Assembly: GCA_037045155.1 (NCBI GenBank)
Contig: JBAOIG010000005.1
Location: forward strand, 257,006-321,005
From: Thermomicrobiales bacterium
GTDB taxonomy: Bacteria; Chloroflexota; Chloroflexia; Thermomicrobiales; CFX8
DNA length: 64,000 nt
Direction of reading: 5' to 3'
The notes under the pieces were generated by a model. That model worked only from the letters and a program-made list of their open reading frames with translations. It was not told the origin of the DNA and made no database searches. A program made the position numbers and the translations under genes. Shown here piece after piece: positions 1-61,411 of this stretch (positions within the stretch are counted from its first letter, which is position 1; the number at the start of each line of letters is the position of its first letter).

Positions 1-101
1 TGGTAATCCCGCACACGCTTGCGCAAACAGGCGGTGTGTCACAGGATAATGATACCAGCGGCCGATCGGTCGCGATTACTCACGTAAGGGAGACTGTGCC
101 G

Positions 102-914
102 ATGGAAAAGATCGCGCCGCATCTGGTCGGGCCGGAAGAGCTGGCAGGGCGTACGCCGCTATTGGGGCAGCCAGCGCCGGAGTTCCAGATGAAGGACGAA
201 GCGGGGAACTACGTCACCCTCCGCAGGCTGGTGCGGCAGCGGCCGATCCTGCTGCATCTGTATCGGGGTGAGTGGTGACCCACTTGACGACTGTACCTGT
301 CGCAGTTGCGACAGCACTACTGGGAACTGCGCGGTCTGGGAATCGAACTGGTGGCAGCGGCGAACGACACGCCGGAGACGAATCGCGACCTACGCGAACG
401 GTATGACCTGCCGTTCATGATTCTGAGCGACGAGAACGCGAACGTCGCCGAGGCGTATGGGTCGCTCCACGAAAATGATTCGACCCGACCGCGGATTTCG
501 CGAGTGTCGATGTTCATCATCCGGCCGGCCGACGAAGGCTCGACCATTGCCTGGGAGTATGTCGGGCCAACCTCGCGGCACCGCGTCGCACCATCCCGAC
601 TGAGTCAGGAGATTCAGACCTACCTGGGCATGCGTCATCAGACGGTGAGCGTGATCGTGCCCTCGGCATGGCAGGTGGAACGGGTGATCGCGGGATTCCA
701 GGATCCTCCGTTCGGACTCTACCGGACGCCTGCCGAGATCAACGAGCCAGGTGTGATGGTCTACCGCGACTACATGCGCGAGCTGGCCATGCAGGCCCAC
801 GGGGAGGTATTCCGACTGCAGAGCAGCGGCTGGACGCTGGCCGCGGTCTCGCCTGAGATGGACGGCGACATCGCGGTCGGGCAACGGTATGTGTTTACGA
901 GGGATGGGGGATGA
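102..914 (+). CDS. Peroxiredoxin-like thioredoxin-fold protein (AhpC/TSA, PRX_like2 type) with two in-frame UGA codons at the CxxC positions. Candidate Sec-Pro-Thr-Sec selenoprotein with an unassigned C-terminal extension of about 110 aa.
   Basis: ORFs 36..278 and 306..914 share one frame and are separated only by TGA CCC ACT TGA plus 6 sense codons. The joined product reads LLHLYRGEW-*-PT-*-RLYLSQLRQHYWELRGLGIELVAAANDTPE..LPFMILSDENANVAEAYG, which matches the FYRGxWCPxC..L..L..LSD family pattern. ATG at 102 follows AAGGGAG. GTG at 36 is an alternative start. Confidence 0.6.
291..323 (+). promoter_or_regulatory. bSECIS-like stem-loop immediately downstream of the two in-frame UGA codons
   Basis: CUGUCGCA(297-304)-GU-UGCGACAG(307-314) is a perfect inverted repeat. 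It can be extended by 291-295/318-322 with one U-U mismatch. The loop centre lies about 28 nt from UGA-1 (276) and about 19 nt from UGA-2 (285). The apical loop contains GU. Confidence 0.45.
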
Positions 915-7373: not shown

Positions 7374-7471
7374 TGGGGAGGGACGGCGCATGGGAGTCGA
7401 ACCCACCTGGGAGGCTCGTCACCCCCCACAGCGGTTTTGAAGACCGAACCCGTCGGTCCGTAAGTGCCCGC
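7374..7471 (-). pseudogene. Decayed tRNA-Sec paralogue or att-type remnant (no acceptor stem)
   Basis: 62 bp (7385-7446) match selC from anticodon stem to T arm with 1 mismatch. The 3' end has a 4-nt insertion (GCGCC-GTCC-CTCCCCA). The 5' third has diverged and cannot pair with the 3' end. Confidence 0.6.
7385..7446. repeat. Direct repeat copy 1 (62 bp, tRNA-Sec core)
   Basis: Identical to 8204-8265 except G7431 versus A8250. The offset is exactly 819 bp, and both copies give the shared peptide MGVEPTWEARHPPQRF in the ORF track. Confidence 0.9.
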
Positions 7472-7614: not shown

Positions 7615-8082
7615 TCACTCGTAGTACTTCCACTCGCCTTCGAGCCAAAGGCCAACGCCGTCCTTCTGTACAGAGTCAATTATCTTGGGGAGACGATCTA
7701 GCGCCAACTCAAGCACCGCAGGATCGGATGTTGAAATATCGAATCTCGCTCGTCGATGATTATCAAGTTCCACGTATAGCTTCAGAGAAGCTGAAGGCGC
7801 GCCGGTTTCGTTGGCGACTCTATCTGACCACAGCTGATTTCGGGCCCAATCCCATGCGCGCACAACAGCGGGTTTCATTAGGTCGTAGGTTCCATTGCTA
7901 AGCATGCTAAGAGCAAAGTTGACCAGCAGAACCAGTTCTGGTGCACGTCCGCTCGCGCCTCCGACTTGAATCTCTCGATACTGCGCCTTGAACGGAGCCA
8001 GAGCCTCGACCAGCCCATCTGGTGGCATCTCGTACCTGGTGTAGATGATGAGCTGGTCAAGGACTTCGACATTGCGGATCAC
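7615..8082 (-). CDS. Hypothetical protein (155 aa) in the low-GC segment between the two tRNA-Sec copies
   Basis: GTG start preceded by GGGGGAGG at 7 nt. A GCTCTGC-tagc-GCAGAGC hairpin lies downstream. I recognise no motif. GC is about 50% on hand-counted lines. Confidence 0.55.
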   Translation of the reverse strand: MIRNVEVLDQLIIYTRYEMPPDGLVEALAPFKAQYREIQVGGASGRAPELVLLVNFALSMLSNGTYDLMKPAVVRAWDWARNQLWSDRVANETGAPSASLKLYVELDNHRRARFDISTSDPAVLELALDRLPKIIDSVQKDGVGLWLEGEWKYYE

Positions 8083-8196: not shown

Positions 8197-8293
8197 TGGC
8201 GAGGGCGCATGGGAGTCGAACCCACCTGGGAGGCTCGTCACCCCCCACAACGGTTTTGAAGACCGCACGAGCCACCGGGCCCGATCCGCCCCC
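8197..8293 (-). tRNA. selC: tRNA-Sec (anticodon UCA)
   Basis: 97 nt: GGGGGCGG-AU-CGGGCC-CGGU-GGCUCG-U-GCGGU-CUUCAAA-ACCGU, a 7-bp extra arm, GUGGG-UUCGACU-CCCAU, GCGCCCUC-G-CCA. It has the 8/5 architecture, a 6-bp D stem with a 4-nt loop, G73 and an encoded CCA. Confidence 0.85.
8204..8265. repeat. Direct repeat copy 2 (62 bp, inside selC)
   Basis: See 7385-7446. Confidence 0.9.
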
Positions 8294-33986: not shown

Positions 33987-36026
33987 TCAGGGTGAGCGCT
34001 GGGGTTCACCCGTTATTTCGGCCAGTTGCGCCAGCATGATCGCGGGGTCAGTCGCAGGGAGCTCGCATGTGTAGTTGCGACAGACGTAGACGGTGGCTTT
34101 ATCTTCGATTCGTGGCCGATCCGCCAGCAGTGGAACGACGAGGGCCGCCCCACCGTCCGGATTGCCGAGGGCAATGACGGCGCGTGGCAGGAACATCTCC
34201 CGCAGTGGAGTCAGCAGTAACCCAGCGTCGATGAGATCACCGCTGATGGCGACCTCGGCGATCGGGCCGACGGCGAGATCGGCGGCGCAGAGAAGCCGGC
34301 CATAGCCGAGCGCGTTACCGGCCGCATGCGGCGCCAGGCCGCTGAGCACGCCTCTGGCGATTCGGGTCAGATCGATATCGCCGGTCAGATGGGCCAGGCG
34401 AAGCAGGACATCGCAAGCCACGCTGTTGCCGCTGGGGGTGGCGTTGTCGCTGAAATCGCGGGGCCGGCCGATGAGCGCGTCACCGGTGGCACGGGCATCG
34501 TAGAAGGCGCCGTCGACGTAGAACTCGTCCAGCATCGTGCGAGACACCTGATCGGCGAGCACGACCCAGGCGGGATCGAATGTCGCCTGCCAGGTCGCGA
34601 GGAGACCGTCGATGAAGTTGGCGTAGTCCTCGAGATAGCCGGGGATGCGCGCCTCGCCACGCATCCAGACACGGGCGAGCTGTTTGCCGTCCCAGAGACG
34701 GTCGCGGACAAAGGCGGCATTTGCGACTGCGGCTTGTCGGTAGCGCGCGTTGTCGAATGCCCAGGCGGCGGTCGCAACGGCCCGGAGCATCATCCCGTTC
34801 CAGGAGGTCAGCACCTTGTCGTCGCGGCTGGGGTGGACGCGAGCGGATCGGGTGTTGAAGAGCCGCTGGCGCGCGGCAGCGAGGTCACCTTCACGCCAGC
34901 GGAGGCGATCTTCAGCGCGCGCGATCGAGAGGACGTTCGAGCCCTCGAAGTTGCCGCGCTCGGTGATATCGAGAAGCGCGATGACATCGGTCGCCAGGGG
35001 ATCATCGTCGAGCGCAGCGCGGATCTCGGAGGGGGTCCAGGCGTAAAATCTGCCTTCCTCGCCTTCGGTGTCCGCATCCTGGGTAGCGTGGAAGCCGCCG
35101 TCCGGGTCGGTCATCTCGCGCAGGACATAGTCGACCGTCTCGGTCGCGATCGCGCGGTGGAACGGATCGCCCGTGACCTGCCAGGCGATCGTGTAGAGAT
35201 GGGACATCAGGGCGTTGTCGTAGAGCATCTTCTCGAAGTGCGGGACGAGCCAGACAGCATCGACGGCGTAGCGATGGAAGCCACCGCCAATCTGGTCATA
35301 GATGCCGCCACGGCCCATCGTGTCGAGCGTGTGCTCGACCATGCGCAGGGCCTGCTCGGCGCCAGTGCGTTGGTGGACTCGGAGAAGCAGCTCGAGCGCC
35401 ATCGGTGACGGGAACTTCGGCGCTCCGCCGAACCCACCGTTGACACGGTCATACTGGGTAGAGAGATTTCTGGCGGCTTCGTCAAGGAGACCCGGGGTGA
35501 GCTGCCCTTCATCGGGCATCGCCTCGAACTGGGCCTGCAGCGCGACGGCGACGCGGTCGGCTCCGGCCGCGACCTCCGTCCGGCGCTGCTCCCACGCCTC
35601 GTGGACGGCGAGCAAAATACGGGAAAAGCCGGGCATCGAACCGCGATCGGCCGGCGGGAAGTAGGTCCCAGCGTAGAACGGCTTACCACCCGGGGTGAGG
35701 AACACCGTCATCGGCCAGCCGCCGTGGCCAGTGAGGAGCTGGGTGGCAGTCATATAGATCGAGTCGAGGTCAGGACGTTCCTCGCGATCGACCTTGATGT
35801 TGATGTAGAGCCGGTTCATCAGCGCGGCGATCTCGTCGTTCTCGAAGCTCTCGTGGGCCATTACATGACACCAGTGACACGCGGAGTAGCCGATCGACAG
35901 CAGGATTGGCTTGTCCTCGGCGCGGGCGCGCTCGAGCGCCTCGTCACTCCAGGGATACCAGTCGACCGGATTATCGGCGTGCTGCAACAGGTAGGGGCTG
36001 GTTTCGCGGGATAAGCGGTTTGGCAC
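33987..36026 (-). CDS. Thioredoxin-domain protein of the YyaL/DUF255 (SPATA20-like) family
   Basis: [52 protein letters not shown], followed by a six-hairpin glycosidase-like C-terminal domain. 679 aa. Confidence 0.9.
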
Positions 36027-57810: not shown

Positions 57811-58935
57811 ATGACAGCGACGATGTCGCGGCATGCGCTTGCTTCGGTCGATGCTGGCGATGACATGGTTCTCTCGGCGCAGCTCGACCTCTCTGGAGAT
57901 CGGCAGATCGAACGCTCCTACCGCGTCGCCTTCGACGACATGGCTCGGCGATATCGCGCTGCGCTGGCCCGGGCAGCATGGCCCGCATTCGATCGCGAAG
58001 TCGATCGCGTTCGCGAGTATCTGGCGGCACTGATGCCGGCCGGCGCCGGGCTGGTCATCCACTCGTGCGAACCGTTGGGATTGTGGCATGTCGTCGCGGT
58101 TCCAACGCCCATCCCCAACGAGATTGCGCTCGGCAGGTTCGCTCGCGTTCGTTCGCTCCTGGATTTCGTTGACGAGCACGAGCCGAGCGCGGTCGCGCTC
58201 GTCGACAGCGAGGAGGCGCGCGTCTTCCTTCTCGAACGCGGGCAGGTGGTCGACTCCTGGGATCTCCTCAGCCTTGTCCCTGGCCGGCATAAGCAGGGCG
58301 GCTGGTCGCAGGCGAACTACCAGCGGCATCACGACAACGTCGTTGATGTCCATCTGCGGACGGTGTGCGACCAGCTCGTCGAGCTGGGCCAACGCCAGCC
58401 GTACCGACGACTGATCATCGGAGGGCCGGTCGAGCCGGTCTCCCGATTGCAGGAGCTTCTCCCACGAACGCTGCGGGAGCGTCTGGCCGGCACATTCGAG
58501 GCCGAGATGTTTGCGTCCAATTCGGAGACACTGGATCGCGCATCCGCGGTTCTTAAGGCAGCGGAGCGCGAATCCGAAGAGCGTGTCGTCGCGCAGCTTC
58601 GCGAGGGTGCCCACGACGGAGGGGCAGCCGTGCTCGGCTTCACCCCGACACTCGCAGCGGTTGCGGCGCGGCAGGCGCGGACTCTCGTTGTCGCCAGCGC
58701 CACCAGTCAGCAGGGGGCGTCCTGTCCATCGTGCGGGGGACTATTCGTCGGGGCGCTGTCCATCTGCCCGGCGTGTGGGAATGTGGTCGAGACGGTCGGC
58801 GATGTCGTCGACGAGGCAATGCGCCGCACGATCGTGTCCGGTGGCGATGTTGAGGTCACTCACGGAGTGGCAGCCGCCGAGCTGCTGGCCATCGGGGCTG
58901 GAATCGGCGCGCTGTTGCGCTATGCGGCCGGCTGA
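57811..58935 (+). CDS. eRF1-fold protein of the bacterial Vms1/ANKZF1-like (baeRF, Rv2629-like) family with an inserted Zn-ribbon
   Basis: 374 aa. The loop GRHKQGGWSQANYQRHHDN resembles a GGQ/GxxQ loop. The C-terminus GAGIGALLRY is typical of the family as I recall it. CPSCG..CPACG zinc ribbon. Confidence 0.6.
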   Translation: MTATMSRHALASVDAGDDMVLSAQLDLSGDRQIERSYRVAFDDMARRYRAALARAAWPAFDREVDRVREYLAALMPAGAGLVIHSCEPLGLWHVVAVPTPIPNEIALGRFARVRSLLDFVDEHEPSAVALVDSEEARVFLLERGQVVDSWDLLSLVPGRHKQGGWSQANYQRHHDNVVDVHLRTVCDQLVELGQRQPYRRLIIGGPVEPVSRLQELLPRTLRERLAGTFEAEMFASNSETLDRASAVLKAAERESEERVVAQLREGAHDGGAAVLGFTPTLAAVAARQARTLVVASATSQQGASCPSCGGLFVGALSICPACGNVVETVGDVVDEAMRRTIVSGGDVEVTHGVAAAELLAIGAGIGALLRYAAG

Positions 58936-61025: not shown

Positions 61026-61411
61026 CGAGCCTCGTAATCGTGCCGCCGCTGGCAGGCGACGCACCGCGCCGCCTGGGGCAGGGCCTCCAACCGTCCGGGA
61101 TCGAGCGGCATCCCGCACTCAACGCAGTACCCGTACGACCCATCGTGAATGCGGCGGAGCGCGTCGTCAATCCCGACAAGCTCGGCGCGGAGGTAGCGGA
61201 TCTCGGAGACGTCAGTCTCGGCGGTCAGCAACTCGCCGGCCGCATCGGCCGGGTGATTGGCGACGGTTCCCTCGATGGCCTGGCTTGAGGTCGCTCCGAG
61301 GAGGTCGGCGCCAACCTCGGCAATCCGCCCCAGAATCTCCCGGCGCTGCTCCTCGAGCTGAATCCGCGCCGCATCAATCGCGATGGGTTGGCGTGGTGGG
61401 TGGTGGCGCAT
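61022..61411 (-). CDS. TraR/DksA-family C4 zinc-finger protein
   Basis: CVECGMPLDPGRLEALPQAARCVACQ. ATG at 61411 follows GAGGAAGG. Confidence 0.8.
   Translation of the reverse strand: MRHHPPRQPIAIDAARIQLEEQRREILGRIAEVGADLLGATSSQAIEGTVANHPADAAGELLTAETDVSEIRYLRAELVGIDDALRRIHDGSYGYCVECGMPLDPGRLEALPQAARCVACQRRHDYEAR

Follow-up and report, generated by a model that had tools for sequence, protein, structure and literature searches.

Peroxiredoxin-like (Prx-like) thiol:disulfide oxidoreductases with a UxxC or UxxU motif, in which U is selenocysteine (Sec), were reportedly first described by Kryukov and Gladyshev in 2004. UxxU members served by a single selenocysteine insertion sequence (SECIS) have been known since SelL in 2007, and the direct demonstration of the SelL diselenide is attributed to Shchedrina et al. 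in PNAS in that year. The Prx-like family is defined by a pfam00578 domain, a UxxC or UxxU motif and one or two Sec residues (PMC9312934, PMC13188914). For SelL, two published accounts record a diselenide bond and a single SECIS that acts on two UGAs two codons apart (PMC2397514, PMC4989117). UxxU sequences are also present in the GOS 'Prx-like 2' family (PMC2398784), the lokiarchaeal protein PrxL.1 contains two Sec and no other cysteine (PMC4989117), and a UXXU motif is found in group 4 [NiFeSe] hydrogenases. The locus considered here lies in a stretch of 64,000 nucleotides from a Thermomicrobiales bacterium of the Chloroflexota (assembly GCA_037045155.1, contig JBAOIG010000005.1, positions 257,006 to 321,005 of the forward strand), referred to below as the window. 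Comparative sequence data suggest that positions 102-914 of the window most probably encode a cytoplasmic selenoprotein of 270 residues, in which a U59-P-T-U62 Prx-like domain is joined to a lineage-specific C-terminal domain and both UGAs are recoded via one SECIS. The original prediction for this locus held that a form with two Sec residues sharing one SECIS would be unusual, a view that does not stand, as Prx-like UxxU proteins with a single SECIS are already in the literature (PMC9312934, PMC13188914, PMC2398784, PMC4989117). Because such proteins have been described, the understanding of selenoproteins in general is left unchanged.

The reading frame consists of 58 sense codons, TGA (276-278), CCC ACT and a second TGA (285-287), after which it is open until the TGA at 912-914. 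The open reading frames (ORFs) listed at 36..278 and 306..914, which the original prediction had joined as one gene split by two TGAs, have the coordinates claimed and share a single frame of 270 codons from the ATG. Read through, this frame gives the motif ...LLHLYRGEW-U-P-T-U-RLYLSQLRQ.... When Cys is substituted for both U, the Pfam models AhpC-TSA (PF00578; E 6e-24, 84.8 bits with a cutoff of 26, over residues 22-131) and Redoxin (1.5e-16) are matched, and the Pfam-matched span extends over residues 22-131/139. This match, together with a TGA pair present in 19/19 orthologous sequences, agrees with the earlier description of a protein of the AhpC/TSA type in which Sec fills both places of a CxxC-type motif. 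The window protein contains no cysteine at all, and U-P-T-U aside it has no redox-active residue; in 76 of 79 database homologues the part visible in the records is Cys-free as well. As the protein is otherwise devoid of Cys, the U-P-T-U pair is its sole redox centre.

Relatives of the gene were sought by a protein search (5.8 billion proteins) with the joined sequence as query and by a profile search against 1.84 billion cluster representatives, for which the best 150 matches were listed. Orthologous DNA was taken from GTDB species genomes (L001-L013), JGI metagenomes (L017) and assemblies of four more divergent clades (L097, L098, L100 and L102/L103). Of the GTDB species representatives in which the gene was found, none is cultured. 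The pattern W-TGA-CCN-(ACN/TCN/AGC)-TGA is in frame and ungapped relative to the window in 19/19 orthologous sequences (about 50-86% identity), all hosted by metagenome-assembled genomes (MAGs) of Thermomicrobiales/Chloroflexia, and no TGC or TGT variant occurs at either site in these 19 sequences. The codons neighbouring both TGAs vary across the same set, and the recurrence of one TGA pair at the same columns in every locus is far beyond chance. In 14 loci, differences over the 40 codons 5' of UGA-1 are distributed among codon positions 1:2:3 as 1174:544:1856, with a mean amino acid identity of 66%, and over the 40 codons 3' of UGA-2 as 709:490:1805, with a mean identity of 72%. The flanks of both UGAs thus evolve as coding sequence under purifying selection, which is strong throughout the 208 residues that follow UGA-2. 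The original prediction had proposed an alignment of orthologues as a check and had considered that two stops falling on the catalytic Cys codons were unlikely in a decaying pseudogene; the alignment places TGA in both columns in 19/19 sequences, with Cys found there in distant relatives only, and the coding-type divergence of the flanks supports the same argument.

The protein databases give an incomplete picture of this family. The protein search returned 79 close homologues (46-98% identity; source names Thermomicrobiales and Nitrolancea), each of 171-221 aa and covering only the last ~58-77% of the query, mostly about 75%. All of them start after UGA-2, at most six residues before an RQxYWE anchor, and the YRGxW motif is present in 0/79. 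In orthologous loci, gene callers report an upstream ORF of 62-76 aa and a truncated downstream ORF, and because the gene is split in this way the databases show only truncated proteins. The public records of the family (79 clusters at 90% identity) accordingly describe, under the name 'redoxin domain' or 'hypothetical', a product of about 200 aa from which the active site is missing, and none of the curated NCBIfam models captures the family. Beyond the 79, the next-best protein matches are ordinary BCP/PrxQ proteins at 35% identity, and no Cys-containing member of the two-domain family at full length was recovered by the profile search (1.84 billion cluster representatives). A scan of JGI metagenomes added one further orthologue (L017), the remainder being distant BCP/PrxQ genes with Cys and Sec variants. 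Among distant relatives, Cys occupies both columns in P0143 (YRGDWCPFC) and L072 (YRGNWCPKC), and UxxC is found in L014 and L028.

A number of other sequences were encountered in these searches. A single-domain Prx-like homologue of about 160 aa and 31% identity (L015; Bacillota MAG JAJYWN010000034.1, 10001-10447) contains W-TGA-GGC-CCC-TGA, and its hairpin, UUGUCGC-AGUU-GCGACAC, encodes LSQLRH and is essentially the same as that of the window. Since L015 has UxxU and the same hairpin, the UxxU-plus-SECIS module is common to different phyla. At L013:10001-10799 (contig CAVXOL010000001.1, 688 kb) W-TGA-P-S-TGA and the hairpin are kept, with the frame lost after ...LDLPFMLLSDPG, and the corresponding database protein, P0071, restarts downstream of the frame loss. 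Either the long-read MAG contains an indel error here, or the gene has recently decayed into a pseudogene. Hundreds of proteins of ~100-115 aa in the profile search (P0094, P0097-P0105 and others) match from their residue 1, just past the redox motif, and are probably further Prx-like selenoproteins whose gene models were cut short at an in-frame TGA; in P0096, which has two domains in tandem, domain 1 is truncated likewise and domain 2 has WSEYC. BCP/PrxQ-type genes with TPG-TGA-T, in which Sec is at the peroxidatic position (L022, L026, L029, L039, L041, L060, L071, L089 and L016), represent the known TxxU Prx selenoprotein and are recurrent among the distant matches from metagenomes and an Actinomycetota MAG.

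Four constraints define the published model of bacterial SECIS (bSECIS) elements: the apical loop has 3-9 nt, the first or second of which is a G that in most cases precedes another G or a U; the upper stem has 4-16 bp; the loop lies 16-37 nt from the UGA; and the minimum free energy is -7.5 kcal/mol or lower (PMC13188914). The hairpin CTGTCGC(297-303)-AGTT-GCGACAG(308-314) has a perfect 7-bp stem and the 4-nt loop AGUU, in which G is at position 2 and is followed by U. The distance to the start of the loop is 25 nt from UGA-1 and 16 nt from UGA-2, the folding energy is -8.0 to -11.5 kcal/mol in every orthologue, and all four published constraints agree with the hairpin for both UGAs. Constraint on the RNA itself is apparent from the pair 300/311, which joins the first base of a Ser/Ala/Thr codon to the wobble base of an Arg codon. 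In an alignment of 15 sequences this pair occurs as UA(5), AU(4), UG(3), GC(2) and GU(1) and is never unpaired, and its covariation score is 0.203 against 0.053 +/- 0.025 for shuffled alignments, with 0/500 shuffles as high; the four extra clades show further GU pairs. Because the sequences group into three or four clades, the number of independent compensatory changes behind the covariation is at least two and should not be counted as fifteen. Slid registers of the hairpin alignment are only 15-69% paired, and RNAalifold recovers 6/7 of the hairpin pairs. Within the hairpin, the codons Leu CTG, Gln CAG and the rare Leu codon TTG are each invariant in 19/19 sequences, whereas each of the other, equally conserved Leu positions of the gene is encoded by three or four different codons. 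The hairpin is therefore under selection as RNA, as shown by covariation and frozen synonymous sites, and the earlier claim of a perfect hairpin in the bSECIS position is upheld. A longer lower stem (GUA/UAC) was also considered; it folds in some sequences, but is not conserved.

The decoding background is consistent with local recoding. ARAGORN and Rfam both recognise a tRNA-Sec gene 7.3 kb from the selenoprotein gene (Table 1), as the original prediction had stated. Its acceptor stem has 8 positions (seven pairs and a G.G mismatch at the base), the T stem has 5 bp, the D stem has 6 bp with a 4-nt loop, and there are a long variable arm, the anticodon UCA, a discriminator G and an encoded CCA. 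Under the operational criteria of PMC13582414, SelC is recognised by a discriminator G or A and the Cys-inserting tRNA-ReC by U, so that the tRNA in the window is a canonical SelC. No tRNA-Sec is found near the gene at any other orthologous locus, and its proximity here is therefore incidental and does not reflect conserved linkage. Among ordinary stops in the window UGA is used most often, in 12 of the 18 domain-supported genes; a reassigned genetic code is thereby excluded, and the recoding would be local, as had been argued. A crude coding-potential scan also yielded a candidate gene with an in-frame TGA at 61286, which was rejected, its translation being low-complexity and antisense-like.

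The tRNA-Sec gene is also part of a direct repeat on the minus strand (68 nt, 96% identity; 7382-7449 against 8201-8268, 819 nt downstream), the repeated part being its 3' two-thirds, from the anticodon stem through the acceptor end. The DNA between the repeats has 50-58% GC, against 65-72% in the flanks, and contains a single ORF of 155 aa (7615-8082, minus strand), for which neither Pfam nor NCBIfam gives a match; no integrase is found inside the repeat-bounded stretch. The repeat looks like an att-site duplication from a small or decayed element integrated in the 3' end of selC.

Table 1. Features of the selenoprotein locus and the tRNA-Sec gene, in positions of the window.
Feature	Position	Strand	Basis
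Shine-Dalgarno-like AAGGGAG	86..92	+	Read from sequence; 9 nt 5' of ATG 102
Predicted full selenoprotein coding sequence, 270 codons, Sec59 and Sec62	102..914	+	One frame, ending at TGA 912-914; orthologues conserved along its entire length
Prx-like (BCP/PrxQ-like) thioredoxin-fold domain, residues ~22-175	165..626	+	Pfam, AlphaFold2 model, BCP alignment
UGA-1, predicted Sec59 (codon 59)	276..278	+	TGA in 19/19 orthologous sequences
UGA-2, predicted Sec62 (codon 62)	285..287	+	TGA in 19/19 orthologous sequences
Predicted bacterial SECIS hairpin inside the ORF, encoding L-S-Q-L-R-Q	297..314	+	Fold energy, covariation, invariant codons
C-terminal domain, ~95 aa, family-specific, weakly DUF4177-like	627..911	+	Pfam in relatives, AlphaFold2 model
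tRNA-Sec (selC), canonical	8197..8293	-	ARAGORN; Rfam RF01852, 75.2 bits against a cutoff of 47

The selenoprotein reading is preferred because the TGA pair is found in every orthologue, both flanks are under selection, the hairpin fits the SECIS model and covaries, and the tRNA-Sec is canonical. The gene structure, the conservation of both UGAs, the selection on the hairpin at the RNA level, the presence of selC in the window and the Prx-like fold have direct support, and from these we infer that Sec is inserted at both sites. SelB with Sec-tRNA(Sec) would bind the hairpin and deliver Sec at UGA-1; after the ribosome had moved on by three codons, Sec would be delivered at UGA-2 by another SelB complex bound to this hairpin. 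Because one hairpin lies in the permitted range of both UGAs, it would be used twice in succession, after which it would be melted by the ribosome and translated. The product may cycle between a diselenol and an intramolecular diselenide, with Sec62, in the peroxidatic position, as the presumed attacking residue and Sec59 as its resolving partner. Its activity could be that of a very low-potential selenol/diselenide oxidoreductase or a Sec-based hydroperoxide reductase. Diselenides are described as having a very low redox potential and as hard to reduce (PMC2397514).

Several points weigh against this reading. A scan of the 35 larger ORFs of the window did not detect selA, selB or selD, and the lack of a Cys-form orthologue among the sequences searched is atypical of selenoprotein families. 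In addition, the 16 nt that separate UGA-2 from the loop are the shortest distance that the bSECIS model allows. Sec insertion in E. coli fdhF was reportedly found to be sensitive to spacing, so that efficient insertion in two registers is not self-evident. The alternative that survives best, although it is improbable, retains recoding dependent on SECIS and SelB and supposes that a tRNA(ReC) or selC*-type tRNA encoded elsewhere reads one or both UGAs as Cys, giving CxxC, CxxU, UxxC or a mixture. The tRNA(ReC) reads SECIS-dependent UGA as Cys and is enriched in genomes with UXXU motifs, having been reported from ~56% of the genomes that encode UXXU hydrogenases, compared with ~2% among the remaining Sec-type genomes (PMC13582414), and the view available here is limited to 64 kb of the genome. 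Nevertheless, the sole such tRNA in the window is the canonical SelC, with G and not U as discriminator, and a TGA pair kept in 19/19 sequences, with no TGC or TGT in any lineage, is hard to explain if Cys is intended. There is also the precedent of two true Sec residues in the UxxU motif of SelL, whose diselenide is recorded in reviews.

It is about equally improbable that only one UGA is read as Sec, most likely UGA-1 with its more central spacing, the other being subject to near-cognate read-through (Trp/Cys) or to frequent termination, so that the product would be mostly truncated or would contain a single Sec. UGA followed by C is the leakiest termination context in bacteria, and C usually follows both UGAs; the position of UGA-2 at the 16-nt lower bound of bSECIS spacing points in the same direction. 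Yet TGA is kept in 19/19 sequences at both positions while the neighbouring codons vary, UGA-2 is in the invariant and catalytically essential peroxidatic-Cys column, where Trp would destroy the redox centre, and the 208 residues downstream are nonetheless strongly constrained. A decaying pseudogene, a sequencing error or two separate polypeptides (58 aa, and ~200 aa started after UGA-2) is scarcely credible and is effectively excluded by the comparative data: although every public annotation is the truncated downstream ORF, in some cases with the upstream ORF of 62-76 aa, and an apparent frameshift is present in orthologue L013, the identical double TGA is found in 19 independent assemblies from different projects and platforms, the divergence is of the coding type on both sides of the TGAs, a split would sever the thioredoxin fold at its active site, the sequence 3' of UGA-2 has neither a conserved start nor a conserved ribosome-binding site (gene callers place the start at ATG, TTG or GTG, in differing codons), and the RNA-level constraint lies exactly at the place expected of a SECIS. 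Insertion of Sec at both UGAs through one SECIS thus continues to be the preferred explanation of the locus.

Placement of the protein among thioredoxin-fold families relies on structure prediction and alignment. The AlphaFold2 (AF2) model of residues 63-270 has a pLDDT of 84 and a pTM of 0.78, and its structure matches are the BCP/PrxQ entries 2cx3, 3hjp and 4gqf (E ~3e-4). In a multiple alignment, Sec62 is in the invariant peroxidatic-Cys column of BCP/PrxQ, which corresponds to the second Cys of CxxC relatives, and Sec59 falls on the Thr/Ser of the Prx T/SxxC motif, which corresponds to their first Cys. The Prx motif PxxxTxxC with its conserved Arg is not retained: Arg stands in place of the Pro, Sec59 takes the position of the Thr, and the L009-L012 clade has Leu instead of the catalytic Arg. 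The window protein scores below the cutoff of every NCBIfam model, the best being a thiol peroxidase model (49.9 bits against a cutoff of 140), and NF040769 SelL_rel_redox scores 35.1 bits against a cutoff of 120. Since PxxxT and Arg depart from the Prx pattern, the family is, on its sequence, not a peroxiredoxin proper. A CxxC-type motif whose second position is peroxidatic, with the rest of the Prx triad missing, lies inside the PF00578 domain, a combination that we take to be the definition of PRX_like2, and as judged by this motif the gene belongs with the Prx-like UxxC/UxxU group.

The C-terminal extension of about 110 aa, in which the original prediction recognised no motif, proves instead to be a folded domain of ~95 aa. 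Residues ~176-270 are modelled by AF2 with a pLDDT of 85 as a strand, a helix, a conserved loop, a helix and two strands, the loop FQDPPxGxYxxP being conserved in sequence and low in model confidence. Pfam DUF4177 (PF13783) gives a weak match in 15/22 family members at E <= 1, with a best E of 5e-5, and leaves the window protein itself unmatched; a faint precomputed DUF4177 match is on record for P0060. No PDB entry matches the domain at E < 0.09 (best E 0.09). Matches confined to the C-terminal part of the family profile were solely fragments of the two-domain family, among the best 150 listed from the 1.84 billion cluster representatives. The domain would thus seem to be specific to the family and is weakly DUF4177-like. 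In several clades the gene is followed by an MFS_3 transporter and preceded by a phosphodiesterase gene, an arrangement that does not hold in the window, where the downstream neighbour is a thiamine pyrophosphate (TPP)-enzyme gene at 1034. No clue to a redox partner was found in the gene neighbourhoods of the window and the orthologous loci.

Other features of the window were observed that bear less directly on the gene. A perfect 11-bp inverted repeat at 944-971 (CAGGGGCGAAC ... GTTCGCCCCTG) starts 30 nt past the stop codon; it has no T-run after it, is absent from the output of a terminator scan, and may act between the selenoprotein and TPP-enzyme genes as a terminator that needs no T-tract or as a hairpin that stabilises the transcript. 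The ORF at 57811-58935 (plus strand) matches baeRF_family10 (1.6e-27) and acVLRF1 (2.2e-11), and its product is an eRF1-like ribosome-rescue/release factor typical of Actinobacteria and Chloroflexi, with no link to recoding seen. A further thioredoxin-fold protein, of 679 aa with an N-terminal Thioredox_DsbH/DUF255 domain (1.5e-77), is encoded at 33987-36026 on the minus strand and has no in-frame UGA.

Literature searches on selenoproteins of Thermomicrobia/Sphaerobacter and on DUF4177 returned nothing relevant. In the literature searched, the two-domain subfamily of Thermomicrobiales/Chloroflexia, its strict UxxU without a Cys orthologue, its private C-terminal domain and its uniform mis-annotation appear to be undescribed. 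A corrected gene model would mend annotation across Thermomicrobiales/Chloroflexia MAGs, and the family adds a protein with a strictly conserved diselenide motif to high-GC soil and wastewater Chloroflexi, which have been little discussed for selenium use. It is also an unusually clean comparative case, marked by covariation and invariant synonymous sites, of a single in-ORF SECIS that serves a pair of UGAs 9 nt apart. It is conceivable, although doubtful, that this is a selenium-obligate enzyme family: UxxU has never reverted to Cys in the lineages sampled, the protein is Cys-free and it is fused to a private domain, so that its chemistry might need a diselenide/diselenol couple and not simply a thiol that reacts faster. 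If so, its roles could include the handling of selenium or other chalcogens, or the reduction of very low-potential substrates, in aerobic soil Thermomicrobiales, and the gene would provide a compact natural system that requires a single bacterial SECIS to be loaded twice within three codons.

Among known systems, BCP/PrxQ, including its Sec form TxxU, supplies the closest solved structures and the best NCBIfam match, and Sec62 corresponds to its peroxidatic Cys. The window protein differs in having Sec59 for the Thr of the triad and Arg for the Pro of PxxxT, in the loss of the catalytic Arg in one clade, and in scoring below every NCBIfam peroxiredoxin cutoff. Lokiarchaeal PrxL.1 is similar in that both Cys of the redox box are replaced by Sec in an otherwise Cys-free protein, but it is archaeal and single-domain, and its eukaryote-like SECIS is outside the recoded site. 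SelL shares the Prx-like thioredoxin fold, the UxxU motif and one SECIS for two UGAs two codons apart; the window protein is under the NF040769 cutoff and so is not of the SelL family, and SelL is found in aquatic animals and marine bacteria and is without the DUF4177-like C-terminal domain. The closest likeness is to the Prx-like thiol:disulfide oxidoreductases of the UxxC/UxxU type, with which the window protein shares PF00578, a motif at the CxxC position of the thioredoxin fold, Sec at the first or both positions, a SECIS in the ORF just downstream and a function that is predicted. In contrast to that family as a whole, the subfamily represented in the window is exclusively UxxU, no UxxC or CxxC orthologues having been found, is confined to uncultured Thermomicrobiales/Chloroflexia and adds a C-terminal domain of ~95 aa.

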